Shown here piece after piece: positions 1 to 15,640 of a stretch of 64,000 bases of DNA (position 1 is the first letter of the stretch; each line of letters starts with the position of its first letter). Position numbers and translations under genes: made by a program. Below the pieces are notes generated by a model that was not told the DNA's origin, searched no databases, and saw only the letters and a program-made list of their open reading frames with translations. This DNA comes from Desulfatiglandales bacterium. GTDB lineage: Bacteria; Desulfobacterota; DSM-4660; Desulfatiglandales; Desulfatiglandaceae. The stretch covers positions 3,104,001 to 3,168,000 of the forward strand of contig OY762721.1 in NCBI GenBank assembly GCA_963666345.1, read 5' to 3'.

Positions 1-358
1 ATGTCAAATAACATGCTGCTGGTAGTTATGTAAAGTGGGACGTCCTTAAACAATCAAATAAGTCAAGGTAGAATGAAAGAATGGGGGCTGAATCTACACT
101 CTTAACAAATGACAGGATAGATACCTGATGCTTGAAAAATACATAAAGATCTTTTTAAACCTGCGGACAGACCATTATGCGTGCCCATATTCACTTGATT
201 CCGAGATAAGACGGCGATAGCCCGAATCCCAGAGGCGGCGTAAGGGGCGTCATACCTGACAAGATGGCATATTGGAAGAACTTAGTGTGAGTTCAAGGCT
301 TTTCGAAGTTTCAGTTTGCGATCTCAGCGTTTTCTTTCTGAGGTAATTTAAAATCACT

Positions 359-387
359 TTGACTATTTGTATCCTACGAGATACACT
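359..387 (+). promoter_or_regulatory. sigma70-type promoter with overlapping operator for the first TA module
   Basis: TTGACT (359-364), 17 bp, TACACT (382-387); inverted repeat TGTATC-N6-GATACA (368-385) overlaps it. Confidence 0.55.
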
Positions 388-393
388 TAGGGC

Positions 394-522
394 ATGAAAT
401 ACAAACTCCGAAGTACGAAACAATTATGACAAATGGTTTTCCTACTGGCCGGTGGTAACAAGTCCAGCCAGGAAAAAGATATTGAAAAGGTCGCTGAACT
501 TTTGAAAGAATTGGAGGATTGA
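394..522 (+). pseudogene. RelE/HigB-like addiction-module killer toxin, internally deleted
   Basis: Starts MKYKLRSTKQ and ends LLAGGNKSSQEKDIEKVAELLKELED*, the typical LLxGGDKSTQxxDI C-terminus; central part absent and frame broken. Confidence 0.75.
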
Positions 523-525
523 ATC

Positions 526-804
526 ATGAAACTTAAAACAAAATCGTTTGATATTGCCGAACATTTGAATACCCTTGAAGAGATTCGCGTCTTTCTGCAA
601 GAGGTTGTTGCTACTGGCGACGAATCCGACTTCATCCACGCCTTGAATACCGCTGCCAGAGCAATAGGCATGACCGAGGTCGCTAAAAAAGCCGGAGTCA
701 CCCGCGCAGGCCTATATAAATCTCTTGCCGAAGACGGCAATCCAAAATTTATCACAATCAGCAAAGTAACAAAGGCCCTTGGCTGTAAGATAGGTGTTTT
801 GTAA
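526..804 (+). CDS. Addiction-module antidote protein (HigA-like HTH antitoxin)
   Basis: FDIAEHL...ARAIGMTEVAKKAGVTRAGLYKSLAEDGNPKF motif; GGAGG RBS; follows toxin remnant. Confidence 0.9.
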   Translation: MKLKTKSFDIAEHLNTLEEIRVFLQEVVATGDESDFIHALNTAARAIGMTEVAKKAGVTRAGLYKSLAEDGNPKFITISKVTKALGCKIGVL

Positions 805-866
805 AGGGCATTTCAAGAACATATTTTCAACCGTGTAAACGACTTTCCAACAACTGCAGTATAATT

Positions 867-983
867 GGGGTCGCCGAGATAACCATCTTAAATAAGGCTA
901 AAATGCCGGAATTTTGAGCATTTTTTGACAACAGGTCCTTTTGGAATGATTAACATGTGTAATCAATAGGTTGGCGTGACCCC
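867..983. mobile_element. GGGGTC...GACCCC mini-element, copy 1 (shortest)
   Basis: Ends GGGGTCGCC / GGCGTGACCCC; 3' part TTTTGGAATGATTAACATGTGTAATCAATAGGTTGGCGTG shared with the copies ending at 6317 and 11138. Confidence 0.65.
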
Positions 984-999
984 AAATTCCACAAATTCA

Positions 1000-1625
1000 C
1001 CATTAAATAACCCCTTAATCCACCAGTTTTACTGGTGGGTCCCAGCTATGCTAAGCGGGTAGCGTGGTGGTGACAAAAAAAGAATACCTCCATAATATCG
1101 GGGTAGGTGACCCTGAAGATAAAAGGAGGTATTCAATGAATGATTTTAGAAAATTAGCACATGCGATCTGGGATTGCAAATACCACATAGTTTGGTGCCC
1201 GAAATATCGATTCAGGATTCTGAAAGGTGCAGTAAGAAAATCAGTCTGTGAAATTATAAAGCAGCTGTGCGAATGGAAGAAGCTTGAAATTCTGGAAATG
1301 AATGTCCAGAAAGACCATGTGCATCTTGTGATATCAATACCACCGAAGTTATCGGTTTCGGAAGTAACAGGTTTTTTGAAAGGCAAATGCGCCATAAAGA
1401 TCTTTGATAGGCATCTGGAGTTGGAAAGGCGGTACTGGGGAAGGCATTTTTGGGCGAAGGGATACTGTGTCAGTACCATAGGACTGGATGAGGAGAAGAT
1501 CAGAAAGTATGTCAAATGGCAGTTGGAAAAAGATAAGCGCATGTAATTGCCTAGTATAAGGATGTAAATGTTACCCTTTTAGGGTCACCTTTTAGTCCAC
1601 CCCTTTTAGGGGTGGTTGTTAAATT
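1000..1625 (+). mobile_element. IS200/IS605-family element, tnpA only (ends approximate)
   Basis: Subterminal hairpins CCACCAGT-TTT-ACTGGTGG (1020-1038), ACCCT-TTT-AGGGT (1573-1585) and CCACCCCT-TTT-AGGGGTGG (1597-1615) flank tnpA. Confidence 0.8.
1136..1546 (+). CDS. tnpA: IS200-type Y1 (HUH) transposase
   Basis: YHIVWCPKYR, DHVHL (HUH), FWAKGYCVSTIG, YVKWQ catalytic Tyr; AGGAGG RBS before ATG 1136. Confidence 0.95.
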   Translation: MNDFRKLAHAIWDCKYHIVWCPKYRFRILKGAVRKSVCEIIKQLCEWKKLEILEMNVQKDHVHLVISIPPKLSVSEVTGFLKGKCAIKIFDRHLELERRYWGRHFWAKGYCVSTIGLDEEKIRKYVKWQLEKDKRM

Positions 1626-1755
1626 CATCAAATTCCACAAATTCAAGGATTGCCAAGGCTGTTTGTCAAACCGGCTTAATCAACCGAACCGCCCTGGTAC
1701 GTGATCCGTATGCCGGGTGGTGTGGGCTTACTATTACCCATAAGTCTAGACGATT

Positions 1756-2067
1756 TTATCGCCGAGTTTCTTCCTTAAAAGCCTCAATATTTGCCTCAAC
1801 AAGTTGCTCGATCAGTTTCCTTAGTCGGGCATAATTGGCGATCATCTTTCGCATTCTGGTTAACTGGTCTCTTTTAACATAAACGCTACGTGTTTTTTGT
1901 TGGCTATCCTTATAGGTCAGCCGATATGCCATCCGGGATGACTTTTTTGAGCATATGCATCTCGCTCTGTTGCATGTGGAACAAACGCTTGTAATCGACC
2001 CGCGAACAAATTCAGGGAATTGGGCTAATTTTTTTAAAAGATCATTTCGTTTTTTGACAGGATTCAT
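1756..2067 (-). CDS. DUF6788-like small basic Cys-containing protein, IS passenger
   Basis: RGSITSVCSTCNRARCIC...YRLTYKD...KTRSVYV pattern; GGAGG RBS before MNPVKK; lies inside the IS ends. Confidence 0.7.
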   Translation of the reverse strand: MNPVKKRNDLLKKLAQFPEFVRGSITSVCSTCNRARCICSKKSSRMAYRLTYKDSQQKTRSVYVKRDQLTRMRKMIANYARLRKLIEQLVEANIEAFKEETRR

Positions 2068-2088
2068 CCTTGACACCTCCCTATCGTA

Positions 2089-2117
2089 ATAGTAGACGTA
2101 TATAATACGTCTACTAT
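2089..2117. promoter_or_regulatory. Palindrome between the divergent IS genes, putative operator
   Basis: ATAGTAGACGTAT-ATA-ATACGTCTACTAT, 13-bp perfect arms, contains TATAAT. Confidence 0.6.
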
Positions 2118-2148
2118 ACAAATGTCAACTTTTAATGGGAGGCGTTCA

Positions 2149-3594
2149 ATGAACCCAAAAAATAGATCAAGTTGGGCGGCGGAAGAGTTTGCAGAGGTCA
2201 AGCTCGGAGATAAAAGACTCGATGCAAGGCTGATTAAGCTGTGTGATAGATTTTCGGATGCTCCAGAGAGCCCCATCAACCAAGCATGCGTGGATTGGGC
2301 AGAGACCAAAGCTGCTTATCGTTTTTTTCAAAACAACAAAGTTGAGGTTGGTAAGATGTTGGCGGCCCACCGATGTAAAACAGCTCAGCGTACTAAGGAA
2401 CACAAAACGGTTCTTGCACTCCAAGATACCAGTTATTTTGTCTATACTGACCATCCGAAGACCGAAGGACTCGGGAAGATGTCTTTAAAGAAGGGTAAAA
2501 ACGTGAAAAATATCTATTCCAACGGCCTGATAATGCATACATGTCTGGCTGTAACAACTAAAGGCCTCCCACTCGGACTGTTGGATCAAAAAATATTTTC
2601 ACGGAAACTCCGGAAAAAGGATAACAAAAAAGCAAAACCTCACGCCAATCTCCCGATAGAGGAAAAGGAAAGCTATAGATGGCTTGAGGCATTAGAAAAC
2701 ACTAAGGAATTAACAGGTTGTACCCGAATCGTCACAGTCTGCGATCGAGAAGCCGATCTATACGATTTCTTTATGCGTAGCCATCAAATCAATGCCCCTG
2801 TCCTCGTTCGAGCAAACGTAGATAGGATTATAAATCGTAAATCCCGTTATGCAGAAAAGAATGTCGAAAAACTTTGGGAGAATATGCGAAAACAGCCTGA
2901 TTCAGGTTCTTACGTGGTAGAAATCGCGAAAAGGTCTAAGTCGAAGCATGCCAAAGAAAGGGAAGCACGCACCGCGATGGTCTCTGTACGTTTCGGCTCT
3001 TTTACCCTCAATCCTCCCCGCAATAGTATCAGGCACAGCACTGAGAAACTTCCAGACATTGAGATGCACGCAGTCTATGTTATAGAAACAAATCCGCCTG
3101 ATAGCGAGGAAGCTATCGAGTGGATGCTCCTGACCAATCTTCCAGTCATGTCGTATGAAGATGCTTATGAAAAAGTTTTGTGGTACTGCTTACGCTGGCG
3201 AATTGAAATGTACTTCAAGGTCTTAAAGTCCGGTTTTAGGGTCGAATCATGTCGGCTAGGGCATGCCGATCGGCTGGCAAAATACCTCACAGTTATGAGC
3301 ATTGTAGCTTGGAGGATCTTCATGATTACCTTGATCGCTCGTACCGATCCGACAACACCCTGCTCAACTTTCCTTACCGATCAGGAGTGGAAAGCCCTTT
3401 TCCTGCATGCAAATATAAACAAACCTATACCGAAAAAGCCACCAACCATTGGTATTGTAGTCATCTGGATTGCAAAACTAGGAGGTCACCTAGCCCGAAA
3501 AAACGATGGGCCTCCTGGTACTATCACATTATGGAGAGGATGGAAGCGTCTTGCAGATCTGAGTGAAGGCTTGAAACTGGCGGATCAGCTATGA
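2149..3594 (+). CDS. IS4-family DDE transposase (Tn5-like)
   Basis: WAAEEF..LGDKRL N-terminus, LQDTS, VCDREAD, YCLRWRIEMYFKVLKSG (YREK), PPGTITLWRGW C-terminus. Confidence 0.95.
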   Translation: MNPKNRSSWAAEEFAEVKLGDKRLDARLIKLCDRFSDAPESPINQACVDWAETKAAYRFFQNNKVEVGKMLAAHRCKTAQRTKEHKTVLALQDTSYFVYTDHPKTEGLGKMSLKKGKNVKNIYSNGLIMHTCLAVTTKGLPLGLLDQKIFSRKLRKKDNKKAKPHANLPIEEKESYRWLEALENTKELTGCTRIVTVCDREADLYDFFMRSHQINAPVLVRANVDRIINRKSRYAEKNVEKLWENMRKQPDSGSYVVEIAKRSKSKHAKEREARTAMVSVRFGSFTLNPPRNSIRHSTEKLPDIEMHAVYVIETNPPDSEEAIEWMLLTNLPVMSYEDAYEKVLWYCLRWRIEMYFKVLKSGFRVESCRLGHADRLAKYLTVMSIVAWRIFMITLIARTDPTTPCSTFLTDQEWKALFLHANINKPIPKKPPTIGIVVIWIAKLGGHLARKNDGPPGTITLWRGWKRLADLSEGLKLADQL

Positions 3595-3681
3595 TACTTA
3601 TGGGTAATAGTAAGGTGGTGTGGGAGGAGGGGAGTTGCGAGGCTCCTCCCTATCCCGATTAACCGTTTGGAAATTTCCCCC

Positions 3682-3710
3682 TTGCCAAAAGCTTTTTTAT
3701 GATCTATATT
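3682..3710 (+). promoter_or_regulatory. sigma70-type promoter of the Phd/RelE cassette
   Basis: TTGCCA, 17 bp, TATATT. Confidence 0.5.
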
Positions 3711-3755
3711 AAGACCAATAAAAAAACATAATATAGCACATTAAAGGAGTTGAAA

Positions 3756-4007
3756 ATGGAATCGGTTTTAGCAAAATGTTCAGCAAGTATTTCAGAGCTA
3801 AAAAAGAATCCCTCTTCTCTTATCCAACAAGCAGAAGGCGAGCCTATTGCTATTCTGAACCACAATAAGCCGACTGCATATCTTATTCCGGCTGATACAT
3901 ACGAAATAATGCTTGAGCAGATAGAAGATTATCACCTGGGCTTAATCGTCAAAGAACGTCAGCATGAAAAAGAGTATGCTGTCGAGGTGAACCTCAATGA
4001 GTTATAG
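3756..4007 (+). CDS. Phd/YefM (StbD-like) antitoxin
   Basis: SASISELKKNP...EPIAILNHNKPTAYLIP motif; start may be TTG 3750. Confidence 0.9.
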   Translation: MESVLAKCSASISELKKNPSSLIQQAEGEPIAILNHNKPTAYLIPADTYEIMLEQIEDYHLGLIVKERQHEKEYAVEVNLNEL

Positions 4008-4277
4008 GCTTAAATTCCTTCCATCGGCATTAAAGGAATGGAAAAAACTCGATAACTCCTTGCAACCCCAATTAAAAAAAAACTTGCTGAGCGATTTGAA
4101 AATCCACGAATTATTTCTGCTAAACTTTCGGGATTTGAAAATCACTACAAAATCAAACTAAGAGCAAGCGGTTATCGACTTGTATACGAAGTTGTTGATG
4201 AAGAACTTATCGTGTATGTGATAGCTGTTGGAAAACGAAAGAGGAATGTCGTCTATAAAAAAGCAAAAAATAGATGA
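3997..4277 (+). pseudogene. RelE/StbE toxin, frameshifted in an A9 run
   Basis: MSYRLKFLPSALKEWKKLD...QL then, in another frame, LAERFENPR...YKIKLRASGYRLVYEV...VIAVGKR; A-run 4074-4082 is one base short; missing from the ORF track. Confidence 0.85.
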
Positions 4278-4281
4278 TTTC

Positions 4282-4407
4282 GGTTGACAAAACGCTGCAG
4301 CCGACCCGGGTGAGCGCGGCTTTCTTATAGTCCTTTGTTTTTGATAAAATTTGGCTTTTACAACGTACTCGGCAATTTTCCCCGGTGGGCTGAGCTTAAC
4401 GTTATGC
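4282..4407 (+). other. attC-like recombination site
   Basis: R'' GGTTGAC; L'' arm GCT(G)CAGCCGACCCGGG pairs with CCCGGTGGGCTGAGC leaving an extrahelical base; R' GTTATGC. Confidence 0.75.
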
Positions 4408-4605
4408 GCCTTGCGACGAAAGCAAAACATTCCTTTATTTGTGGTTGTGCGGAGGTGTAGTTTGGTTTAGCAGAAGCGGCCAAGGATATGAACTACCCTT
4501 GTCCGCCCAAATCGCCGTAGCGGGTGTTAACTGATGGATTGCCTATCGGCATTTGGTCTTGCCGTTTGTCAGTTTATTCGTGAAAGGTTGCTATGTACTT
4601 GCTGT

Positions 4606-4881
4606 TTACTTCAAATCCATCTTTTCGGGTTCACACAAGAGGCCCGGATTGATAGCCGTCTTTCCGCAATTTTTGCACGAATACCGATTATTGTTGACAC
4701 GATTTTGGCAGGCTTGGGGTGGAGGCAGATCTTTTGAGCCGCACCAGTCTGCTTTGGTGATCCTTCCGGCAGGGTTACATATATTGTTTTGATCCAAGGA
4801 TACGGCACCGCAGTTGCCGCAGTAGAACGCCTTGGTGTCTTTAGGCAGAGGCGTGTGTTTTTTCATGTCAGCTTCAGTCAT
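4606..4881 (-). CDS. Small Cys-rich putative metal-binding protein
   Basis: Two CxxCG...CxP units plus WCG and one further Cys; AAGGAG RBS. Confidence 0.7.
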   Translation of the reverse strand: MTEADMKKHTPLPKDTKAFYCGNCGAVSLDQNNICNPAGRITKADWCGSKDLPPPQACQNRVNNNRYSCKNCGKTAINPGLLCEPEKMDLK

Positions 4882-5100
4882 CTACAAATCTCCTTTTAAG
4901 TTCAACCATTTAATAAACCGGGGCTTCCCATATCAAGTTTAACTCATGTAATCTACCTTCTGTGGAGTTATTTCCCATTATGTTCTATTTGCGCTTGGCC
5001 GTCAACAACTGGCAATGAATCGGTGCTGAGCATTTCTTCCACCACGGGTTTCTTGCAGATCGAACAGCACCTTCGTTTGACAAGTAGTACCAGTGGGGGC

Positions 5101-5301
5101 ACATAACAACTCATTGGAGCCGACTGCAATGGGCGTGCACCCCTGAGTCTGGCCCATTTCCAAAACCCGCTTCCGCTTCAACTTTGCGCTCGACAAACGG
5201 TTGACTCTGAATCATGTCGTCAGTTACACTGGCACCAATGAAGTGGGCGCAAATGCTCGATTAGCTTGCACCCTTTCATCGGCTCAATTCGGGCGTTAGG
5301 G
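5101..5301 (+). other. Long attC-like site (201 bp)
   Basis: R'' ACATAAC; ATTG(G)AGCCGA pairs with TCGGCTCAAT; R' GTTAGGG. Confidence 0.7.
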
Positions 5302-5335
5302 CGTAGGAGCTTAGCAATTCTCTTAATGAATAGCC

Positions 5336-5896
5336 ATGACAGTCTTCGATGATATCCGGCTTGCATTATTCATCGCCACAATTGTGGTAATGACGTTCAT
5401 TTCACGGAAGACTATCCTCAATTTCCGATCACACGGATTCTATCGGTTCCTTGCGTGGGAAGCAATCGCTGCACTAATCATTTGGAACTTGCCTCATTGG
5501 TTCTCTGATCCTTTCTCCGTCAAGCAGTTGATATCATGGATATTATTAATTGTATCTGTTTATGTTCTATGGCAAGGGGTGTCGCGGCTTCGCGCAGCGA
5601 AACGATCCAACAGTCGCAGCTCGAAGGAATTGTATGCCTTTGAACGGACATCAGAACTCGTAACCTCAGGAATCTACCGCTATATTCGACATCCACTCTA
5701 TACTTCCCTGTTTTACCTCGCATGGGGGGCATTTCTTAAGGAGATTTCATGGGTTTCCATCATTCTGATAATCATGGCAAGTTTATCACTATTTGCCACT
5801 GCCAGAGCTGATGAGCACGAGTGTATTCAATATTTTGGTGATCGGTACAAAGAATATATGGAGGGCACGAAAAGATTCATTCCATTCGTATTTTGA
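5336..5896 (+). CDS. Isoprenylcysteine carboxyl methyltransferase / PEMT-family membrane protein
   Basis: LVTSGIYRYIRHPLY and FGDRYKEYMEGTKRFIP motifs; several TM segments. Confidence 0.9.
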   Translation: MTVFDDIRLALFIATIVVMTFISRKTILNFRSHGFYRFLAWEAIAALIIWNLPHWFSDPFSVKQLISWILLIVSVYVLWQGVSRLRAAKRSNSRSSKELYAFERTSELVTSGIYRYIRHPLYTSLFYLAWGAFLKEISWVSIILIIMASLSLFATARADEHECIQYFGDRYKEYMEGTKRFIPFVF

Positions 5897-5916
5897 CTCT
5901 ATGCAACTGCCACTGA

Positions 5917-6317
5917 GGGGTCGGTGAGGGGTCGGGAGGGGTCGGGGTCGGGCCATGGTAACACTCTGAAATAACTTCGAAAGACGACTGAAAAGGGCCT
6001 GAAATAGGGTCTATATTGCGTTTTTTGATACCAAAAAGGGCATTATAGGTTCTTGGTGATGGCAAGAGCAAAAAGACATTTGAGATGAAAAGAGGATCGA
6101 TGGTGTAGGGCGCACCTGTTTTTAGAGATGTCGAATTCGCTTTTGCTTGGAGGCGCAGTCGTCAGAAAGATAAAACAATCCGGAGAGGGCTATGAGCTTC
6201 GAGAGCCTGTAAATCCCTATATCGTCAATTTTGAGGCTGAAGACGGCGATACAGGCCTTGAAAACAGGTATTTTTGGAATGATTAACATGTGTAATCAAT
6301 AGGTTGGCGTGGCCCCC
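5917..6317 (+). mobile_element. GGGGTC...GGCCCC mini-element, copy 2, with transposase-like terminal coding remnants
   Basis: Four GGGGTC at 5917, 5928, 5938, 5944; ATG 6059 MARAKRH; 6182-6286 GEGYELREPVNPYIVNFEAEDGDTGLENRYFWND*; 6055-6317 closely similar to 10879-11138. Confidence 0.7.
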
Positions 6318-6548
6318 AAGTATCAGAAAGGTGATGACTAAAGGATCATAAAACCATACACACAAACCACTAGCTTCTACAATATGTGAAGCCAGGAAAA
6401 TGGTCTGAACCGTCAACTAGCAGCATCCGGACATGGACTGCCAACTTCAATTGGACTTTATCTACAGAGTCGTTGGCATCCAGCAAATTTTTCTTGAAAT
6501 ACACCAAAACAACCTATATTTTGTGTATATGTGATTGGAGGTGATCAT

Positions 6549-6749
6549 ATGGGCAGAACAAACGTGGTGATTGATGATAATCTGGTCAATGAATGTCAAA
6601 AATTGACCGGAATTCGTACACGGCGCGCTCTTATAGACTACGCGCTACATGAGGTGCGACGCCGTGGTCGTCAGAAACGATTGCTTGAACTGAAGGGCAC
6701 TATCAAATGGGAGGGTGACCTTACCGAGTGGCGGGAGGCTCGTGATTAA
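6549..6749 (+). CDS. vapB: VapB antitoxin
   Basis: RTNVVIDDNL...LLELKGTIKWEGDL motif; GGAGG RBS. Confidence 0.85.
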   Translation: MGRTNVVIDDNLVNECQKLTGIRTRRALIDYALHEVRRRGRQKRLLELKGTIKWEGDLTEWREARD

Positions 6750-7138
6750 TGGTGCTTGTCGATACATCAGTTTGGATCGACTTATTTGCAGGCCGTAACG
6801 AGTCACATGTGATGTCACTTCAGGAACTGATCGAGAGTGAAGAGGATTTGTCACTCTGTGGAGTTATCCTTGCGGAAGTTCTCCTAGGTATCCGTTCTGA
6901 TGCAGATTTTACCAAAACAAAGGAGTATCTTGGCGACCTTATTTTCCTGCCCATGCGGCAAGCATCATTTGTAAAAGCAGCTGAGCTCTATAGGTCCCTT
7001 CGAAAGAAAGGGGTTTCAATTCGGAAACCAGTTGATTGTATGATTGCTTCTGTTGCAATTGAGTACAATATCCAACTGCTTCACAATGACCGCGATTTCA
7101 ACCATATTGCCAGGCACTCAAAGCTTAGAATATTTTGA
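6749..7138 (+). CDS. vapC: VapC PIN-domain toxin
   Basis: VLVDTSVWID, AEVLLG, VDCMIA, LLHNDRDF. Confidence 0.92.
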   Translation: MVLVDTSVWIDLFAGRNESHVMSLQELIESEEDLSLCGVILAEVLLGIRSDADFTKTKEYLGDLIFLPMRQASFVKAAELYRSLRKKGVSIRKPVDCMIASVAIEYNIQLLHNDRDFNHIARHSKLRIF

Positions 7139-7145
7139 TTGAAAA

Positions 7146-7273
7146 TGCCAACCACAGTTTGGAGAGGGACCGGGAAAACTGGGCCGTTTTTGGCCAGTCT
7201 TTTCATTGCTTCTTCTCTGGCTGTCTCTTCATTCAGTGGTAATCGGTCCCGGTCTCTCAAACTTAAGTTTGCA
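7146..7273 (+). other. attC-like site closing the vapBC cassette
   Basis: R'' TGCCAAC; GTTTG(G)AGAGGGACCGGGA pairs with TCCCGGTCTCTCAAAC; R' GTTTGCA; ATGCCAAC is the exact complement of cassette start GTTGGCAT (6472-6479). Confidence 0.75.
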
Positions 7274-7292
7274 ATCATCACAGGAAATCTAA

Positions 7293-10200
7293 ATGAAGAC
7301 AAGTAGTATTGATTCAACAAAAATCGACGGCAATCGAAGCATCAGGCAAGGTGGAACATTTATCCGGGCAATTACATGCTTAATGCTCCCGGTAATCATC
7401 TCTATTCTGTTGATGGGCCTTCCTTCGGTCGGGCATGGAACCGAGGATCCCCTGACACCTGAGGAAAGAGCCTGGCTGAAGCAGCATGACGAGAAGATTA
7501 TTGTAAATAATGAAGCAGGCTGGCCGCCGATTATAGATAGGGATAACGATGGCAATTCGTTTGGAATTGTTATGGATTATCAAAGATTGATTGAAAAGAA
7601 GCTTAATTTTAAGTTCAAAATGGACAAGTTGGACAGCTGGAAAAACTTTATGGAGAGGTTTCGTAAAGGAGAAATTGACGTAAATAATAATCTTCAAAAA
7701 TCTCCTAAGCGAACTGAATATGCACTTTTTACAAAGCCCTATATAGAGATTCCAAATGCCATCATCGTCAGAAAAGAAAATAAAAGCGTTCTCACCTTAG
7801 AAAAGATGCGTGAAATGAAAATCGCGGTTACCAATGACTTTGCCATTCATGGCTACATCAAAAACAATTATGATTATTTACAACTCATACCGCTTGATGA
7901 TGATCTCAGTTGTTTGCTTGAAACCTCCACCAAAAACGTAGATGCAGCGGTCGTGAATCTGGCTGTTGCATCATTTATTATAGAAAAGATGGGGATAGCC
8001 AACCTTCGCGTCGCAGGATATGCCGAGTATACAAATGCGCTCTGTTTTGCGTCAAGAAAGGATTGGCCGATCCTGAACCGGATACTGGATAAGGGACTTA
8101 ACCTCATCAGCCAGGCAGAAAGGAAAGCCATTTACAGAAAGTGGATCTCTTTGAGATATATACCTTTTTACAAAACCCGTAATTTCTGGATCGTTTCCTG
8201 TAGCGTAGCCGCGGCAGTTATAGCAATTATCATTATGATACTTGTTTGGAATCGAAGTCTGAAAAGGCAAATTGAGTTACGAACAGAGAAACTTGAAACA
8301 ATCAATGTTCAATTGAAAAATGAGATAGATGATCGCAAGAAGGCGGAAGAGTCACTAAAGGAGAGTAAAGATAATTATCGCATTTTGTTCGATAATGCCC
8401 CCGACTTAATTATCGTAATCAATACTGAAGGAATTTTTCTTGATTTAAATAAAAAGTTTGAGCAAGAAAGCGGTTACAGCCGAGAGGAGATGATAGGGAA
8501 AAGTGTCTTCACAAGCGGGATATTAACAGAATCATCTGTTAATTTATCAATACCTTACTTTGAAAAGCTTCTTGCGGGGGGGAAACGGGCCTTACTTGAA
8601 ATTGAAGGTGTGACAAAAGGTGGCAGTAAAGTTCCTTATGAGCTAATGGCGGTTCCTATTAAGAAAGATGGTAAGATAGTGGCAGCTCAGGCGACACTGA
8701 GGAATATGACCGATCGCAAGCAGGCGGAGGAGGAAAAAGATAAGCTGCAGGAGCAGCTGTCCAGTGCTGTGGAAATGGCCCGTCTGGGCCATTGGGAGTA
8801 CGACGTCGCCAAGGACCTCTTCACGTTCAATGACCATTTCTACAAAATATTTCGCACCACAGCCAGGCAAGTCGGAGGGTATACGATGTCATCGGCTGAA
8901 TACGCCCGTCGATTTGTCCATCCTGACGATATGACTGTTGTCGAAGAAGAAAATCGAAAAGCTATTGAAGCAACCGATCCCAACTTTAGCCGACAACTGG
9001 AACACCGAATGGTTTATGCCGATGGGACGGTCGGCCATATCACCGTTCGGTTTTTCATCATCAAGGACGCCCACGGTAGGACGGTCAAGACCTATGGCGT
9101 GAATCAAGATATTACCGAGCGCAGGAGGACGGAGGAGGCGTTACGGAAGAGCGAGGAGAAATACCGGAATATTCTTGAAAACATTGAAGATGGCTATTAT
9201 GAAGTAGACATTGCTGGAAACTTTACTTTTTTTAACAAATCAATGTGCAAGATCCTTGGATATTCAGCCGATGAGTTAATGGGCAAGAATAATCGTGAGT
9301 ACACGGATGGAGAAAATGCAAAAAAGATTTTTCAGGCCTTTCATGACGTGTATCAAACAGGAATAGCCACCAAGGCACTTGATTGGAAACTTATCAGAAA
9401 AGATGGTTCCGAGTGTTTTGTCGAAACGGTGGTGTCTCTTGTAACGGATTTAAATAACAACAAAGTGGGATTTAGGGGAATCGCCAGAGATGTCAGTGAA
9501 CGCAAGTCTATCGAAGCACAGCTTCACCAAGCACGAAAAATGGAGTCAATCGGCACCCTGACAGGCGGCATCGCCCATGATTTTAATAACATTATGGGTA
9601 TTATTGTTGGAAACACGGAACTGGCTTTAGATGATGTCCCGGAGTGGAACCCGGTTCATTCCAACCTTGAAGAGATCAAAACAGCCAGCCTAAGGGCAAC
9701 AAATATAGTAAGGCAACTTCTCAGCTTCAGCCGCAAGACCGACCAGAAACTGCAACCCATGGAAATTGCCTTAGTCATTAAAGATGCACTCAGATTTTTG
9801 CGATCAACGATTCCAACCTCCATAGACATTCAGCAGGATATTCGAGCCACGGATGAAGCTATTCTTGCAGAGCCAACCCAGATCAACCAGATCATGATGA
9901 ACCTGTGCATCAACGCTTCCCATGCCATGGAAAAAACCGGCGGAAATATTGCAGTCAATGTGGAAAAGGTGATTCTGGACGATAGTTCGGCCAAAGACTA
10001 TCCAGATTTGAGAAGCGGCAAACATGTCAAGGTAACGGTAAGCGATACAGGCCCGGGAATAGACCCTGCAATCATCGACCGAATCTTTGACCCCTATTTT
10101 ACCACCAAGGAAGTGGGAAAAGGCTCAGGCATGGGCCTTGCTATGGTGCAAGGCATTGTCAAGAACCTTAGCGGAGCGATTTTGGTTGACAGTAGGCCCG

Positions 10201-10658
10201 GCCAAGGCACTACTTTTACGATGCTTTTTCCACTGATTGAAGGAAAAACAGCGGTTGAAACAGAAACAATACAGGTGCTTCCCAGGGGAAGTGAAACCAT
10301 ACTATTCGTGGATGATGAACTGTCGATTGTAAAGATGGTGCGGAAAATGCTCGAGCGCCTGGGATACAAAGTCGAAACCTCCATGACGCCGCAAGATGCT
10401 TTGGAACGGTTTCGCCTGAATTCCGATCAGTTTGATTTAGTCATTACTGATATGACTATGCCGCAGATGACCGGTGTTAAGCTGTCTGAAAAGATAATGG
10501 AAATCCGAGAAGATATCCCAATCATCATCTGCACGGGGCATAGTGCCCTTGTCGATGAAGAAAAGGCGAAAGAATTAGGTTTAGCCGCCTATATCATGAA
10601 ACCAATAAACATGTCAGTAATCGCGCAGACCATTCGGAAGGTGTTTGACAAAAAATAA
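7293..10658 (+). CDS. Hybrid sensor histidine kinase: periplasmic binding domain, TM, three PAS, HisKA, HATPase, receiver
   Basis: LTPEERAWL..WPP; GGIAHDFNN H-box; FTTKEVGKGSGMGL; ILFVDDE, ITDMTMP; exact start uncertain. Confidence 0.93.
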   Translation: MKTSSIDSTKIDGNRSIRQGGTFIRAITCLMLPVIISILLMGLPSVGHGTEDPLTPEERAWLKQHDEKIIVNNEAGWPPIIDRDNDGNSFGIVMDYQRLIEKKLNFKFKMDKLDSWKNFMERFRKGEIDVNNNLQKSPKRTEYALFTKPYIEIPNAIIVRKENKSVLTLEKMREMKIAVTNDFAIHGYIKNNYDYLQLIPLDDDLSCLLETSTKNVDAAVVNLAVASFIIEKMGIANLRVAGYAEYTNALCFASRKDWPILNRILDKGLNLISQAERKAIYRKWISLRYIPFYKTRNFWIVSCSVAAAVIAIIIMILVWNRSLKRQIELRTEKLETINVQLKNEIDDRKKAEESLKESKDNYRILFDNAPDLIIVINTEGIFLDLNKKFEQESGYSREEMIGKSVFTSGILTESSVNLSIPYFEKLLAGGKRALLEIEGVTKGGSKVPYELMAVPIKKDGKIVAAQATLRNMTDRKQAEEEKDKLQEQLSSAVEMARLGHWEYDVAKDLFTFNDHFYKIFRTTARQVGGYTMSSAEYARRFVHPDDMTVVEEENRKAIEATDPNFSRQLEHRMVYADGTVGHITVRFFIIKDAHGRTVKTYGVNQDITERRRTEEALRKSEEKYRNILENIEDGYYEVDIAGNFTFFNKSMCKILGYSADELMGKNNREYTDGENAKKIFQAFHDVYQTGIATKALDWKLIRKDGSECFVETVVSLVTDLNNNKVGFRGIARDVSERKSIEAQLHQARKMESIGTLTGGIAHDFNNIMGIIVGNTELALDDVPEWNPVHSNLEEIKTASLRATNIVRQLLSFSRKTDQKLQPMEIALVIKDALRFLRSTIPTSIDIQQDIRATDEAILAEPTQINQIMMNLCINASHAMEKTGGNIAVNVEKVILDDSSAKDYPDLRSGKHVKVTVSDTGPGIDPAIIDRIFDPYFTTKEVGKGSGMGLAMVQGIVKNLSGAILVDSRPGQGTTFTMLFPLIEGKTAVETETIQVLPRGSETILFVDDELSIVKMVRKMLERLGYKVETSMTPQDALERFRLNSDQFDLVITDMTMPQMTGVKLSEKIMEIREDIPIIICTGHSALVDEEKAKELGLAAYIMKPINMSVIAQTIRKVFDKK

Positions 10659-10718
10659 TTCCGCGTCAATGATTATCCCTGTACGTAATAAAATAGAGAT
10701 TGACTCTTGAGTGTCTAA

Positions 10719-11138
10719 GGGTCGTCATCCGCCTGCTTTTATTGGTAAACCTTAAGAAAGGGGCAGATATGACCCGAGAGATGATAAGACCATGGCATGA
10801 AGGTTTCCCCCCCCAGGACTTTGTCAAAGGCTTCAAACCCATCCCCTTTATATAGACCTTAAACCCGCTTAGGTCCGTGGTGACGGCAAGAGCAAAAAGG
10901 CATTTGAGATGAAAAGCGGATCGATGTTGTTGGGAGCACGTGTTTTTAGAGATGTCGAATTCGCTTTTGCTTGGAGCCGCAGTCGGCAGAAAGGTCAGGC
11001 AATCCGGAGACGGCTATGAGCTTCGAGAGTCCGTAAATCCCTCGTCAATTTTGAGGCTGAAAACGGCGATACAGGCCTTGTGAAAACAGGTATTTTTGGA
11101 ATGATTATCATGTGTAATTACCAGGTTATCGCGACCCC
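10719..11138 (+). mobile_element. GGGTC...GACCCC mini-element, copy 3
   Basis: 10879-11138 aligns by eye with 6055-6317; start codon reads ACG here; ends GCGACCCC. Confidence 0.65.
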
Positions 11139-11140
11139 AA

Positions 11141-11159
11141 GTCTCCACCCTATCCTGAT
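11141..11159 (+). mobile_element. Very short group II intron 3'-end remnant
   Basis: CTCCACCCTATCCTGAT resembles CTCCTCCCTATCCCGAT at 3643-3659. Confidence 0.55.
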
Positions 11160-11230
11160 TGGCCTAACTTAATCGGTGACCACATCGCTCAAAATGGCTA
11201 TACTTAGGCTATACATTAGGAGGTGATCAA

Positions 11231-11428
11231 ATGCTTACAAAAATTCAGAAATGGGGAAATATCCAAGGTCTTCGTCTTCCCAAAAATTTGCTCAATGACG
11301 TACAGCTTGGGGTCGGTGATGATGTGGATATCAGTGTAAAAGACGGTGTAATTATTGTCACACCAGCCAAAATGGTCCGTGGCTTCTTATGTCCCAAACC
11401 AAGGGGATATTATCGCATTCACCTTTGA
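11231..11428 (+). pseudogene. mazE: MazE/AbrB-type antitoxin lacking its C-terminal half
   Basis: KIQKWGNIQGLRLPK AbrB fold; after PAKMVRG the frame runs directly into mazF sequence. Confidence 0.75.
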
Positions 11429-11717
11429 TCCCCAATCCGGTCACGAACAAAAAGGGCGACGTCCTGCTTTAGTTGTCAGTAAGGAGCTGTTCAATCGAAG
11501 TACCGGTTTAGCTATTGTGTGTCCTATTACAAATACACAGTGTGGTTTTCCATTTCATGTCCCTATACCAAAGGACAGCAGGCTAACAGGTTTCATTATG
11601 GTTGAGCAAATTAAATCAGTTGATTTTAGAGCCCGGCGTGCCAAACGAATTGAGCAGCACAGCAATGATGAATTGCTTTCTGAAGTCCTGTCTATACTGG
11701 ATGCCTGCATTTATTAG
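11379..11717 (+). CDS. mazF: MazF/PemK endoribonuclease toxin
   Basis: GDII..FDPQSGHEQKGRRPALVVS, VCPIT, EQIKSVDF; GTG start with no clear RBS. Confidence 0.88.
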   Translation: MASYVPNQGDIIAFTFDPQSGHEQKGRRPALVVSKELFNRSTGLAIVCPITNTQCGFPFHVPIPKDSRLTGFIMVEQIKSVDFRARRAKRIEQHSNDELLSEVLSILDACIY

Positions 11718-11719
11718 GC

Positions 11720-11794
11720 GGCCAACCTAAGGGTCAACAAGGACCAGCTTTTCCGGCTTGCTTCAAATCCGGCCTGTTACCCAGGCAGTGTGCC
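11720..11794 (+). other. Degenerate attC-like site closing the mazEF cassette
   Basis: R'' GGCCAAC; GGGT(C)AACAAGGACC pairs with GGCCTGTTACCC; R' degenerate GTGTGCC. Confidence 0.6.
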
Positions 11795-11852
11795 GGGCAT
11801 TGCACGTAGCTAGTGAGGTGCTCCATGCCGAAAGACTGGGAAACGGATATTA

Positions 11853-12050
11853 TCATCTTCCCCCGGTCGGAAAGGCCATCTCGTCGCACCTCCAGCAACC
11901 CTGCTCCCTGAAGTCTTTTTCAGGGTCGATACCCTTATCACAAAGCCATCCATATCCGTCCCTGTCCTTGAAAAACTTCAATGGCCGCGCCGGTTTGTGG
12001 GTATCGGTTGTAATCTTTTCTCTATCGTCATAATAAGTTTCCTCTGCCAT
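11853..12050 (-). CDS. Small hypothetical protein with WLCD and CWRC motifs
   Basis: AAGGAG RBS and sigma-54 promoter upstream. Confidence 0.7.
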   Translation of the reverse strand: MAEETYYDDREKITTDTHKPARPLKFFKDRDGYGWLCDKGIDPEKDFREQGCWRCDEMAFPTGGR

Positions 12051-12110
12051 GGTAATCTCCTTTATTGTCTGGGGTTGAGGTTGAATCACGCCCTGTTCAT
12101 TTTATATATG

Positions 12111-12270
12111 AGCACAATCCGTGCCAGGGAAACGGATTCGGCTGAACAATAAATTGTCCCGGTATTTCAGGAAGATATGATGCCAAAAGGCAGGGGATAA
12201 GAAAGGGGGAAACAATCGTTAAATGCAACTTCGCTACCTGTTACGGATTTACCGGTTGCAATACTGCTTC
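12111..12270 (-). promoter_or_regulatory. sigma-54 promoter with paired upstream activator sites
   Basis: TGGCACGGATTGTGCT (minus, 12126-12111); ATGCAACTTCGCTAC (12223-12237) and TTGCAATACTGCTTC (12256-12270). Confidence 0.75.
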
Positions 12271-12271
12271 C

Positions 12272-13660
12272 TTATTTTGCCCTGTTGGAACTGCCCACCT
12301 GTTCAGGCGGCCTGATGTCGAGCTTTTTCATCTTGCGGAACAGCGTTGTCTTGTGGATTTTCAGCTCTTTGGAGGTGGCGAGTCGATTCCATTTATTCTT
12401 TGTAAGAACTGATATGATGAACTGCTTTTCCACTTCAGCCAGGCTGGAAGCGGTGCCCATATTTTCTGTCCGGGGTCGCAGCGATTCGGGTAAGTGCCTG
12501 ACCCGGATTAAATTGCCGGGGCACAGGACGCAGCCATGTTCAATGATGTTTTCCAGCTCCCTGACGTTTCCGGGGTAATCATGGCTCATCAGTATGGTTA
12601 AGGCATCAGGGGAAATACCGTTGATATCTTTGTCGTGAAGGGCTGAAAATCGCCCGATGAAGTGATTTACGAGTAACGGCACATCTTCCATCCGTTCACG
12701 AAGCGGTGGAATTTCCAGCTTGATTACATTAATCCTGTAATAGAGGTCCTGCCGAAATGTCTTTTTGGCAACCATCAATTCCAAGTCACGGTTTGTTGCA
12801 GTGACAATTCGAACATCGGCCTTCACGGAACGAACACCACCCAGGGGTTCATATGTTTTTTCCTGAAGTACGCGGAGGAGCTTTATCTGAAGGAGCGACG
12901 GGAGGTCCCCGACCTCGTCAAGGAACAGCGTGCCCCCTTCGGCCAGGGCGAAACGTCCAGGCTTGGCCTTGACGGCACCGGTGAAGGCGCCAGCCTCGTA
13001 CCCGAAAAGCTCCGACTCTATAAGCGTTTCCGGAAAACCGCCGCAGTTTATGGCGACAAACCGTCTTTTACTACGTCTACTGAGGTTGTGAAGGGCACGG
13101 GCGAAAACCTCCTTGCCCGTTCCACTTTCACCCGTTATCAAGACGTTGCTCTCATTCAGGGCTATGGTAGGCAGGATGTCCAGGATCTGTTTGATTTTGT
13201 TGTTTTTGCTGATAATATCTTCAAAGGTATATGTCTTTTCTATTTCTTTTCGCAGCTCTTCAACGTGTCTCAGATCCCGGAAACTCTCCACCCCACCGAT
13301 CAGTCTGCCTTGTCTGTCTCTGAAAAGCGCCGTGGAAACGCTTATCGGGATCTGCGCCCCCTGTCTATTGGTGAGGTACACCGTAAGGTTTACGACCGGT
13401 CTGCCGGTTTCTATCGTATACTGTATGGCACAGGCATCTCTGCAGATGTTTGATTTAAAAACCTCATAGCAGCGGCGCCCCAGCGCCTCCGAGCGCGGTA
13501 TGCCTGTGATTTTCTCTGCAGCGCGGTTAAAGCAGGTAATACGCCACTCACGATCCACAGTAAAAACTCCCTCGCTTATACTGTGAATTACCGCCTCAAA
13601 ACGCTCAGGCGACGGCTCGCCCAGAAAAGCCGCTGAATTGAGTCTGTCCTTTTCCGTCAT
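12272..13660 (-). CDS. PAS-domain sigma-54 enhancer-binding protein with Fis-type HTH
   Basis: GESGTGKE, GAFTGA, LFLDEVG, YPGNVRELEN; N-terminal PAS. Confidence 0.95.
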   Translation of the reverse strand: MTEKDRLNSAAFLGEPSPERFEAVIHSISEGVFTVDREWRITCFNRAAEKITGIPRSEALGRRCYEVFKSNICRDACAIQYTIETGRPVVNLTVYLTNRQGAQIPISVSTALFRDRQGRLIGGVESFRDLRHVEELRKEIEKTYTFEDIISKNNKIKQILDILPTIALNESNVLITGESGTGKEVFARALHNLSRRSKRRFVAINCGGFPETLIESELFGYEAGAFTGAVKAKPGRFALAEGGTLFLDEVGDLPSLLQIKLLRVLQEKTYEPLGGVRSVKADVRIVTATNRDLELMVAKKTFRQDLYYRINVIKLEIPPLRERMEDVPLLVNHFIGRFSALHDKDINGISPDALTILMSHDYPGNVRELENIIEHGCVLCPGNLIRVRHLPESLRPRTENMGTASSLAEVEKQFIISVLTKNKWNRLATSKELKIHKTTLFRKMKKLDIRPPEQVGSSNRAK

Positions 13661-13765
13661 TTTTCCCTTTCACATTCCACCGTCTGCGGCTGACCGAGAG
13701 CAATACCGTGTGGTTGCCGGAACGACTTGCGTCGTAAAACCAGGGGTGGAAGGCGCCCTTTCAAT

Positions 13766-15640
13766 CTAAGGAGTGGCATTATATGAGTGTCCCCTGGTCA
13801 ATGTCTCCATCCGCTTTTTTGAATATCCCAGGATTTCCCAGGCCTCTTTGTAGACCGGCCTTCCGTCCCTGTTAAAGGGATCAATAAGGATTTTTCGATT
13901 AAAAAAGGGAGAAGGCTTTAAGTGGCAGTCTTTACACCCTTTGGATCCGAGGGCAAATTTGCCGCTGACCACATTATGGCTGAGATCAAAGGGTTCGCAG
14001 CATTTGAACCCCCCGTCGCGCGTAGGCATTAGAGCCTTGTTCAATTGATTGTGATCGAGATAATATATCATGCCGCCCTTTACCAGAACAGGCGAGTGGT
14101 ACACGATCCGGCACCCGAATCTGTCCTTGCCCTCTGATATGGCCTTGAGGTATGTCGTTATTTCTTCCGCAGTGTTTACCTGTTTTGATCCGTTTAGCGC
14201 CTCCAAAAGGGCATAGTTGGTGATGGAAAAATTGTTCTTGGGTCCGGCTCCGGTGAAGTCCCTGATTCTCCACAGGACAATGGGGATAACACGATGAGAA
14301 GACCTGTCCCAATCTCCCCACCATACGACCTGCATAGGGTCAACCGGCTTGATCTTTCCTTTGTATTTTACAAACGCGGGGCACCAGCTGCTTTTCGGAA
14401 ACCTTCGGCAGGATTGAGCGGGATTCAGGGGATCATTAGATAAAAAATCCGAGGTCAGGTATCGGATACTGTGTCCTGTTGTCGCGTTGTCCATTACTGA
14501 AGTGGCTGCGTTGATTTTGTACGGGATATGACATGTTTCACAAGATATTTTATCGATATGCAGATCCGGGAATTTATGATCAGGTCTCGGCGCACGGCTG
14601 TCCGCTCCCTTTAAATGACAATCCGCACAGCCCTTCATGCTCACATCAATATCATCCCTTACGGACCCGACCAGTATGTCACCCTTGGCAATTTCATGAT
14701 TTTCACCGCCGCTGTGACAGTATGTGCATGATAGATTTTTTGCCTTGTGGACGTCTGTTGCGGCATCCCAGCTTCTGCCTCTTTTCATGCCGTCAGGCAT
14801 GACATGACAATTCCAGCAGTTTTCGTCAGGGACCTCTCCGGTTATGGATGCGGCAAGATCCGCCGGGTCGGCGACCCCCGTCTTTGTGTAATCAAGGCCG
14901 AATGAAAGGGCTTTAGCAGGCAGTGAAGGAAGGGCCGGTTTAGACGCCTTGAGATCGCGATACCATCCGGCCCCCACCATGGGTGCCTCGTAAAAAAATC
15001 CTCCTCTAAGGGCGAGCGTCCGTGCTTTCCAGTCATACCCTTTGAGGTGGCAGCTCAGGCAATCAGCCTCAATCACGCCGCTTTTTGTCCAATTTGATTG
15101 ATAATAGTCACCGTCAAGATAATTATCGCCTCTGGGTATGATATTATTGGCGGGGTCTCTTGCGAATTCATCGTAGCGATTTCCCTTGCGGTCATACTCG
15201 CCTGGCCCACCTCCCGGATGGCAGACGCCGCAGGTCTTTGCCCAAAAATACGATGACTTGTCAATGTCACAGCGCCTCATGTTTACCTTCCTTGCCAACT
15301 GGCTGGAATCCGAAGAGGGGGGTCACCACTTGCCGTACATGCCGCGTGAAATCAGCCAGGGGTTTTTGGAGTCCATGTCGTCCCTGACGATTATATTGCC
15401 CGCAGCATCGGTTCGACCATGTTGAAAGTGATAGGCGTTGGTTATGGCGTCATAATCATGACATTCCCCGCATGTGTTTTTGGGGCTGTAAGGGATGTTG
15501 CTCTCAAGCGGTATTTCATTTCCATCGTAATCCATCAGTATGACTTCCGGATGGGGTGCCTTCTCAGAAGCCTCGGAAACGGGAAACAAAAAGGGCATCA
15601 ATAACGTCCACAAAATAAAAAGAAAGCCAGATTTTCGCAT
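13766..15640 (-). CDS. Exported octaheme cytochrome c with in-frame TGA (probable selenocysteine 106), 624 aa
   Basis: ORFs 15323-15640 and 13766-15298 are in the same frame, joined by GMYGKW-TGA-PPSSDSSQLARK; signal peptide; eight CxxCH motifs. Confidence 0.8.
15288..15325 (-). promoter_or_regulatory. Putative bacterial SECIS hairpin
   Basis: After UGA: UUCC-A-GCC-AGUU-GGC-AA-GGAA; apical loop starts 22 nt downstream with G in position 2. Confidence 0.5.

Follow-up and report, generated by a model that had tools for sequence, protein, structure and literature searches.

A cassette array in the chromosome of a Desulfatiglandales bacterium very probably holds three decayed pieces, all on the plus strand, of a single lineage of class C group II (IIC) introns homing to the top strand of integron attC sites, i.e., at CGT|T of the R' core, in the same orientation as the cassettes. 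The stretch analysed, hereafter the window, corresponds to 64,000 nucleotides (nt) of contig OY762721.1 (assembly GCA_963666345.1, positions 3,104,001 to 3,168,000 of the forward strand). Considered alone, the window provides one-sided and partly degraded evidence, and the weight of the argument comes from (i) an intron copy lying upstream of it, designated U, (ii) relatives of this copy in other genomes of the same order, and (iii) two introns carried by plasmids. An initial annotation, made from the sequence of the window, had proposed an intron lineage targeting the other strand of attC; this proposal is borne out by the hairpins ending in CGT next to the relatives, by the aadA1 and aacA4 sites of the plasmids and by copy U, while not being new in kind.

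Intron remnants in the window

In the following, positions without prefix are those of the window, the prefix G000 gives the coordinates of this genome, L followed by a number designates a fetched locus, and U is devoid of an open reading frame (ORF). The features on which the argument draws are listed below.

925 to 999, plus strand: right-end remnant of an IS200-like (Y1_Tnp) element, from one repeat family with 6258–6319 and 11080–11141; upstream part of the composite before relic 1
1646 to 1726, plus strand: left half of intron relic 1, 5'-truncated, with the last ~40 nt of the reverse transcriptase ORF and the tail of domain IV at 1646–1687 and domain V at 1688–1721
1727 to 3614, plus strand: IS4-family (Tn5-like) insertion sequence (IS), transposase at 2122–3594; Pfam Tnp_DNA_bind, Dimer_Tnp_Tn5 and DDE_Tnp_1
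3615 to 3659, plus strand: right half of intron relic 1, i.e., the duplicated 10 nt and domain VI, with the 3' splice site after 3659
3660 to 4408, plus strand: Phd/ParE cassette, starting T|TAACCG; R''-like CGGTTGAC at 4281–4288 and possible R' GTTATGC at 4402–4408
7146 to 7273, plus strand: attC after VapBC, TGCCAAC ... GTTTGCA, 128 nt, the only well-formed attC of the window
10870 to 11141, plus strand: internally deleted remnant of the Y1_Tnp element, 88–90% identical to 6046–6319; upstream part of the composite before relic 2
11143 to 11159, plus strand: intron relic 2, domain VI reduced to its last 17 nt, ending at the 3' splice site
11160 to 11787, plus strand: MazE/MazF cassette, starting T|TGGCC; Pfam MazE_antitoxin and PemK_toxin; R''-like GGCCAAC at 11720–11726, just past the MazF stop codon
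11788 to 11820, plus strand: intron relic 3, starting GTGTGCCGGGCATTGCAC..., the first 33 nt of the intron, absent from the initial annotation

The two motifs from which the initial annotation started are present where it had placed them, namely CCCTATCCCGAT at 3648–3659, followed by TAACCG at 3660–3665, with CGGTTGAC at 4281–4288 (and a second copy at 5198), and CCCTATCCTGAT at 11148–11159, followed by TGGCC, with GGCCAAC at 11720–11726. Both had been taken as IIC intron 3' ends, a reading upheld by the Rfam domains of copy U, by the fold of relic 1 and by the rarity of the shared motif: both are real 3' ends of one IIC lineage. When searched with up to two mismatches, the 17-mer CTCCTCCCTATCCCGAT occurs at two sites of the window, 3643–3659 and 11143–11159, which match each other at 15 of 17 positions, against 0.01 matches expected in shuffled sequences, none of 100 shuffles reaching two.

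Relic 1 is parted by the IS4-family element, whose bounds are given by perfect 19-nt inverted repeats (1727–1745 and 3596–3614) and which is flanked by a 10-nt duplication, GTGGTGTGGG, at 1717–1726 and 3615–3624; as such, the IS splits one intron sequence in the linker between domains V and VI. Once the IS and one copy of the duplication are removed in silico, relic 1 folds like copy U, with 70 of 79 columns matching. Upstream of the IS, 1646–1726 shows 88.75% identity over 80 nt to positions 1760–1839 of the full-length intron of L028, and since this match covers the end of the ORF for the intron-encoded protein (IEP) as well as domain V, relic 1 is a 5'-truncated copy of an ORF-bearing intron, of which the last ~115 nt are left. 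In the fold, domain V exhibits a 2-nt bulge on its 3' strand, and domain VI a GNRA loop, and a bulged TA with the branch-point A at 3652, 7 nt from the end; domain VI is 83–86% identical to that of the plasmid introns. The triad of domain V is presumably CGC, as read by eye against IIC structures. Relic 3, revealed by a pattern search for the 5' end of the lineage, starts 61 nt after the GGCCAAC of the MazEF cassette and is 85–88% identical over 33 nt to positions 1–33 of the introns of L028 and of plasmids pVb0499 and pPp47. An intron 3' end thus precedes the MazEF cassette and an intron 5' end follows it, where the cassette array ends.

Being short, with two mismatches and no adjoining domain V, the match at 11143–11159 could in principle be a fortuitous resemblance. 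Besides the expectation of 0.01 in shuffles, though, relic 2 is preceded by the same element remnant as two other copies, and its end falls precisely at T|TGGCC, a sequence complementary to GGCCAAC. The order of a Y1 element remnant followed by the 3' part of the intron is common to relic 1, to a further copy termed X1 (G000:3792540-3792644) and, with a larger deletion, to relic 2, all three sharing the junction CCCCAA(A/G)T + (T)CCAC/ACAAAT. This recurring composite, together with the shuffle test, indicates that the match is not due to chance, the probability of which appears practically negligible.

Copy U and the integrons of the genome

A whole-genome search revealed copy U at G000:~3101750–3102682, 1.3 kb upstream of the window. 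It ends with ...CCCTATCCCGAT, as does relic 1, and is recognised by Rfam models RF02001 (83.7 bits) and RF01998 (49.7 bits). In its fold, the 3' strand of domain V bears a bulge of 2 nt, and domain VI, capped by a GNRA loop, has a bulged TA located 7 nt ahead of ...GAT, by which the 3' splice site is placed behind GAT. An IS4 fragment lies inside U.

Copy U follows the attC of a methyltransferase cassette, which starts with TTAGCCC, has GGGCTAAC as R'' and folds into a hairpin whose 5' arm bears a bulged A; the last 100 nt of this cassette are 97% identical to a copy in the true integron of the genome. The relic attI and methyltransferase cassette upstream of the window, joined on the plus strand as CTCACTAG|TTAGCCC, have their paralogues in the true integron, next to intI. 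Past U, the following cassette opens with T|TAGTGC and its attC begins with GCACTAAC, an 8/8 complement, with a hairpin of z -6.5. As for the true integron, its intI (G000:1359012-1359980, TIGR02249, 472 bits) contains one internal TGA and its cassettes lie on the minus strand. Upstream of the window, a fragment encoding 42 amino acids (aa) of the C-terminus of an integron integrase and the relic attI are found at L017:11163-11258 and 14920-15030, respectively (G000:3097163-3097258 and 3100920-3101030). The window array looks like either a decayed second integron or a cluster of attC sites lacking an integron integrase (CALIN) derived from the true integron at 1.36 Mb.

Target site of complete relatives and plasmid introns

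Domains I–IV of copy U, used as query, matched 44 of the 209 genomes analysed from this order at E<=1e-5, and 20 genomes besides this one at E<=1e-34. The 5' junctions read amount to 21, i.e., 19 in 18 loci of related genomes and two in plasmids, the flanks of L030 and L031 being identical and thus not independent. In the relatives, the intron starts with GTGTGCC(R)GGCATGGCAC. The 5' exon ends with CGT at 19 of the 21 junctions (17/19 in relatives) and with GT at 20 of them; regarding the two relatives departing from CGT, one exon ends with TTGT and the other copy is degenerate. Downstream, the first base of the 3' exon is T in all 18 cases (11 in relatives, two in plasmids, five in this genome), after discarding three pattern matches with two mismatches (one on each strand of L033 and one on the minus strand of L039), none of which has the stem of domain VI. 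The class of these introns is supported by RF02001, with 110–126 bits in L023, L024, L025 and L028 and 117 bits in pVb0499. The IEP of L028 (442 aa) contains RVT_1 (131 bits) and GIIM (68 bits) and no other domain, thus no endonuclease domain, and is 54–59% identical to many plasmid IIC IEPs. The window relics lack the ribozyme domains matched by RF02001 and RF01998, and all that the window retains of the IEP is the ORF end of ~40 nt at 1646–1687.

Respective to the structure of the target, free folds show a hairpin of at least 8 bp ending at most 14 nt from the junction at 19 of 22 sites, U and the two plasmid sites included. AAC lies at most 16 nt upstream of the hairpin at 13 of these 22 sites, in 10 of which the 5' arm holds more unpaired bases than the 3' arm. 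The initial annotation had called for the 5' exons of full-length copies to be read, and GT ends next to attC-like hairpins are what most of them exhibit.

The strand of the target was calibrated on two class 1 integrons with sites of known orientation, reached by a search of plasmid proteins with the IEP of a relative. In pVb0499, cmlA5, blaOXA-10, aadA1, the intron, qacEdelta1 and sul1 all lie on one strand; the 5' junction, after the attC of aadA1, reads ...GTCTAACAATTCGTTCAAGCCGACGCCGCTTCGCGGCGCGGCTTAACTCAAGCGT|GTGTGTC..., and the 3' junction ...CCCTATCCCGAT|TAGATGCACTAAG. In pPp47, the intron follows the attC of aacA4, with ...GTCAAACGT|GTGTGCC... at its 5' junction and ...CCCGAT|TAGATGC at its 3' junction; the cassettes run in the direction of the intron, with intI1 divergent. 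When folded, the aadA1 attC has C and A bulges on the 5' arm of the cassette strand and none on the 3' arm. L033 and L039 show the same bulges, and L035 has T and A on the 5' arm and none on the 3' arm. According to PMC3053210, the extrahelical bases T-N6-G are a rule of the bottom strand, read by the integrase. The C and A on the 5' arm of aadA1 correspond to T-N6-G on the other strand and, as they are shared by several environmental sites, point to the attC top strand as the one entered by the intron, at GT|T of R' and in the orientation of the cassettes.

Many members of the lineage are ORF-less miniatures of 229–841 nt with both termini intact (L023, L024, L025, L037, L038, L039 and L041), of which four still carry a domain I recognised by RF02001; these were surveyed only and lie outside the window.

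Exon recognition

The position of exon-binding site 1 (EBS1), which pairs with intron-binding site 1 (IBS1) in the 5' exon, was taken from RF02001 alignments; we take this loop to be where class C introns carry EBS1. In copy U, the domain I loop is GCACGUGA, matching exon bases CGU. An alignment of 22 copies gives the loop GCACGTGA in all 14 structurally intact introns with an exon ending in CGT, and in U, while the sole intron with an exon ending in TTGT has the loop GTACGGGA. This correspondence, derived from alignments, fits a putative IBS1–EBS1 pairing of 3 bp, a pairing that the initial annotation had named as a check. IIC introns use 3–4 bp for it as described in PMC7923331.

Cassette boundaries and attC structures in the window

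In the window, attC hairpins were judged by free folds and by the duplexes of their arms compared with shuffles, a folding scan for AAC...GTT being crude yet having found the good sites. In the MazEF cassette, GGCCAAC is complementary to the bases TTGGCC at the junction of relic 2; in the Phd/ParE cassette, CGGTTGAC, located after the toxin ORF, is complementary at 7 of 8 positions to TTAACCG at the junction of relic 1. As the splice sites abut TA (toxin-antitoxin) cassette starts and the R''-like motifs complement the junction bases, R' sites most likely once lay where relics 1 and 2 have their 3' ends. Of the GT|Tnnnn junctions put forward by the initial annotation, the window offers the 3' side, with its complementary R''-like motifs, the 5' exons of both copies being missing. 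The complementarity between R'' and cassette start was itself considered as a test of strand and rejected on reasoning, being symmetrical between the two strands.

The attC after VapBC folds at -21.4 kcal/mol with an arm duplex of -18.7 kcal/mol, equalled by none of 300 shuffles. A mini R''/R' pair occurs at 6439–6479 (z -3.0); apart from 7146–7273, the remaining attC sites of the window are degenerate.

In the Phd/ParE cassette, the gene of the Phd/YefM antitoxin (3750–4007; Pfam PhdYeFM, 48 bits) is intact and the ParE-type toxin is split by a frameshift (3997–4161 and 4056–4277; ParE_toxin, 36 bits, in the second frame), the frame breaking near a run of A at 4071–4080.

Weighing of the evidence and origin of the remnants

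Several results weigh against homing of one IIC lineage to attC top strands in the window. In the first instance, Rfam, whose search had been suggested for the detection of a group II intron, returned no intron match over the whole window at the gathering score, nor at E<=10 over positions 1–16000, which is accounted for by the 1,888-bp IS4-family element parting domains V and VI of relic 1. Model RF00029 gives 23.1 bits for domains V–VI of copy U, for a cut-off of 40, and reaches the gathering score in none of eight relative and plasmid loci. Regarding the junctions, relics 1 and 2 have no 5' exon, and the 5' flank of relic 3 ends with GCA, not CGT, after a stretch that does not fold. The 5' junction of copy U reads ...GATCTCGATG|CTAGGCATGG and has lost GTGTG, which makes the original insertion point ambiguous by up to 3 nt (...TCGT| or ...GATGT|). 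Regarding the hairpins, none is detectable at three of the 22 sites of the relatives' survey, and three of the 13 sites with AAC have more unpaired bases on the 3' arm. In the window, the arms of the MazEF attC form no convincing hairpin (-9.6 kcal/mol, 66 of 300 shuffles as good, z 0.43), the arm duplex of the Phd/ParE attC is marginal (-14.8 kcal/mol, equalled by 17 of 300 shuffles), and the VapBC attC leaves GG and T unpaired on the plus-strand 3' arm, the reverse of what is seen in the aadA1 control and in the genome's remaining attC sites. The assignment of the attC top strand to the plus strand, made by the initial annotation from extrahelical bases, is unconfirmed for the MazEF and Phd/ParE cassettes.

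These unpaired bases of the sole well-formed attC are also what would favour reading the window arrays on the minus strand, in which case the relics would lie on attC bottom strands like ordinary IIC-attC introns, all the more since, by our own reasoning, the complementarity between R'' and cassette start is blind to strand. This reading is nonetheless very unlikely, as all cassette ORFs lie on the plus strand with R''-like motifs directly past stop codons, the upstream array consists of a relic attI joined to a plus-oriented cassette as in the true integron, and the attC sites before and after U carry extra bases on the 5' arm of the plus strand. Moreover, the same lineage is co-oriented with aadA1 and aacA4, the orientation of which is fixed by intI1, and the bulge order at 7146–7273 matches the canonical T-N6-G in neither orientation.

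Given that relics 1, 2 and X1 share their upstream remnant and junction sequence and that none of them has kept a 5' exon, they may be recombination copies of one another and not three independent homing events, which is a further point on the adverse side. Taken to its end, this would mean that the relics never homed here, one decayed composite of a Y1 element remnant and an intron 3' end having spread by recombination or duplication, with its position at cassette starts being secondary. Such a course of events seems unlikely: the 3' flanks differ in the three copies, each starting with T exactly at the splice site, those of relics 1 and 2 complement the R''-like motif of the next cassette, and recombination within the composite would not yield exact splice-site junctions with unrelated cassettes.

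The relics had alternatively been viewed as witnesses of intron-assisted cassette formation, in line with the model of Leon and Roy, where a terminator intron and an attC intron recombine and join a gene to an attC (PMC7923331, PMC3053210, as outlined there). The arrangement around the MazEF cassette, where an intron 3' end comes before the cassette and the R''-like motif is followed by an intron 5' end, would be compatible with intermediates of this process, and the genome also holds a terminator-homing IIC intron. Yet this copy represents a different sublineage (52% IEP identity to L028, EBS1 AAAU, other 3' end), two successive attC sites each hit by a homing intron offer a simpler account, and the gene-intron-attC intermediate was not found. 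As nothing was found in its support, this view is highly improbable, and homing to attC top strands followed by decay is the interpretation retained hereafter.

Putative mechanism and replication

In the complete relatives, the sequences show an intron running from 5' GUGUGCC... to ...CCCUAUCCCGAU 3' and lying directly after the hairpin of the attC top strand, at a point that parts the two T's of the R' core (...CGT|T...), a single base away from the integrase crossover G|TT, and thus co-oriented with the cassettes. The invariant domain I loop GCACGUGA can pair with the last exon bases CGU (EBS1–IBS1), and the first base of the 3' exon is always T (IBS3). By analogy with what is established for endonuclease-less IIC introns, we infer the following route of reverse splicing, in which the hairpin would stand in for IBS2. 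The RNA-protein particle would reverse-splice into the top strand while transiently single-stranded on the template of the lagging strand, and nascent DNA would prime reverse transcription. The copies in the window were destroyed afterwards by truncation, by insertions of IS200-type and IS4-type elements and by deletions.

The placement of the arrays and introns fits the lagging-strand-template model. The cumulative GC skew of the genome is lowest at 2.14 Mb and highest at 0.13 Mb; the top strands of the window array (plus strand, 3.10 Mb) and of the true integron (minus strand, 1.35 Mb) are both on the leading-strand sequence, i.e., the template of lagging-strand synthesis, and all located intron copies are oriented alike relative to replication, on the leading-strand sequence. 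In chromosomal integrons, 25 of 30 are described as having their bottom strands on the leading-strand template (PMC5371416). With such an arrangement, it would be the top strand that an endonuclease-less intron finds accessible in single-stranded form.

Associated mobile elements

One further insertion lies within the region of relic 1.

1000 to 1628, plus strand: IS200-type insertion, Y1 transposase ORF at 1064–1546; Pfam Y1_Tnp, 136.9 bits

This element is bordered by a perfect 17-nt direct repeat, at 983–999 and 1629–1645. A target duplication is unusual for the IS200-type family, which normally makes none.

The repeat of ~290 nt preceding relics 1 and 2 (925–986, 6046–6319 and 10870–11141) was considered as a part of the intron and rejected, as it corresponds to the 3' remnant of the IS200-like (Y1_Tnp) element with its own inverted ends; an Rfam search of this repeat gave no match. 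The remnants at 5944–6322 and 10870–11141, both with internal deletions, have the inverted ends TTGGGGTCGGGCCA and TGGCCCGACCCCAA. In a fuller copy (G000:1344316-1342986), where the Y1_Tnp domain scores 39 bits, the transposase gene is interrupted by a GIY-YIG ORF. The right end of the Y1 element adjoins intron remnants at four places.

The IS4-family (Tn5-like) element looks like an insertion sequence specialised on group II introns. All its copies lie in the linker between domains V and VI of a group II intron, i.e., three of three in this genome (1727–3614 of the window, G000:2893278-2895165 and G000:3787537-3789424) and three of three in three other genomes of the order (loci L065, L066, L067 and L069). 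They occur in both orientations, in at least three intron types, with target duplications of 9–10 bp.

A third type of element, 153 nt long, GC-rich and structured (ATGGCRCGG...GGGGCCG), is present six times in this genome and was detected in 7 of the 209 genomes (L017:12501-12653; L020:6351-6516, 7222-7387, 8423-8588 and 13524-13689; G000:3278075-3278226). It always sits exactly between G and TT of attI or attC cores and ends with ...CCGT|T, like the homing site of the intron; compensatory changes affect eight of its base pairs, and in two cases it stands at the point where a homologous attC has the intron. It was not accepted as the attC of this genome, having no conserved R'' and sitting between G and TT of attI too.

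Comparison with known introns and implications

Within the same genome, another IIC intron follows a different homing strategy. The full-length copy at G000:2891421 lies after a rho-independent terminator, starts with GTGCG and has a domain V nearly the same as that of the lineage, but differs from it by the EBS1 loop GCAAAUAU, the IBS1 GUUU, the 3' end ...CTACTCGAT and an IEP 52% identical to that of L028. Unlike this copy, the window relics carry the attC-type 3' end. The initial annotation would have been put in question by full-length relatives sitting after terminators; the terminator copy of this genome belongs to a different sublineage. It is the one full-length copy of the genome with an intact IEP, has an IS4 element in its domain V–VI linker, and directly follows the terminator of a c-di-GMP-I riboswitch (RF03167, 70 bits; L021:825-899 and 921 onward, G000:2891325-2891421).

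The introns of pVb0499 and pPp47 have the same termini as the lineage (...GCGT|GTGTGTC..., ...ACGT|GTGTGCC... and ...CCCTATCCCGAT|TAGATG) and the same EBS1 loop, and are 71–76% identical to copy U in domain I and 88% in domains V–VI. They are full-length (1838–1840 nt) and reside on resistance plasmids, whereas the window contains decayed pieces in the chromosomal array of an environmental bacterium.

A similar disposition is described in PMC7923331 for group IIB introns of integrons and CALINs (UHB.I2, H.ha.F1/F2), which are in cassette orientation just downstream of attC-like hairpins; the H.ha copies are 5'-truncated, reduced to domains V–VI, and lie beside toxin-antitoxin cassettes and IS200/605 elements. 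They differ from the present lineage by their class, IIB, with an AGC triad, and the description given there of these introns includes no conserved exon motif.

As to what these observations mean, intron ends, even of 17 nt, flag former cassette boundaries and can serve integron annotation. With an intron at GT|T, the R' core is cut in two, which should prevent the flanking cassettes from being excised; by entering one base from the integrase crossover point, the lineage would also lock neighbouring cassettes together. It is present both in genomes of an environmental order and in class 1 integrons of resistance plasmids. For its part, the window adds dead copies only and its direct value is modest.

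Among the closest counterparts are the IIC-attC introns (S.ma.I2 etc.), which, as described in PMC3001079 and PMC7923331, insert in the bottom strand at R'' (TTGT/T), between a gene and its attC and opposite to cassette transcription. Both groups share (i) a class C ribozyme and an endonuclease-less IEP, (ii) a target made of the attC stem-loop and a short IBS1 whose last bases are GT, T serving as IBS3 (TTGT/T for the IIC-attC introns, CGT/T here), and (iii) insertion one base from the GTT core. In contrast, the present lineage lies in the top strand at R', after the attC and co-oriented with the cassettes, and has the EBS1 loop ACGU. The initial annotation had given insertion in the bottom strand as the known rule, which is right for IIC-attC introns and incomplete beyond them, since PMC7923331 cites one top-strand case, namely the 2012 report of Rodriguez-Martinez et al. 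on a class 1 integron of Enterobacter cloacae, with a IIC intron, said not to be of the IIC-attC type, in the attC top strand and in cassette orientation. The 2012 intron, known here via the description in the citing paper, resembles the lineage in its top-strand location and its orientation shared with the cassettes. A literature search on group II introns in attC sites and integrons found no top-strand description beyond this case, cited in 2021 as a single clinical oddity in the text concerned. The kind is thus already in print; novelty may lie in how widely the lineage is spread in the environment, in its invariant EBS1 loop and in its numerous ORF-less copies. attC homing takes two mirror-image forms, and we tentatively suggest, with slightly less than even confidence, that the relics are members of a separate, widely distributed sister lineage to the IIC-attC introns, specialised through its EBS1 loop ACGU on the mirror target, i.e., CGT|T at R' of the attC top strand.

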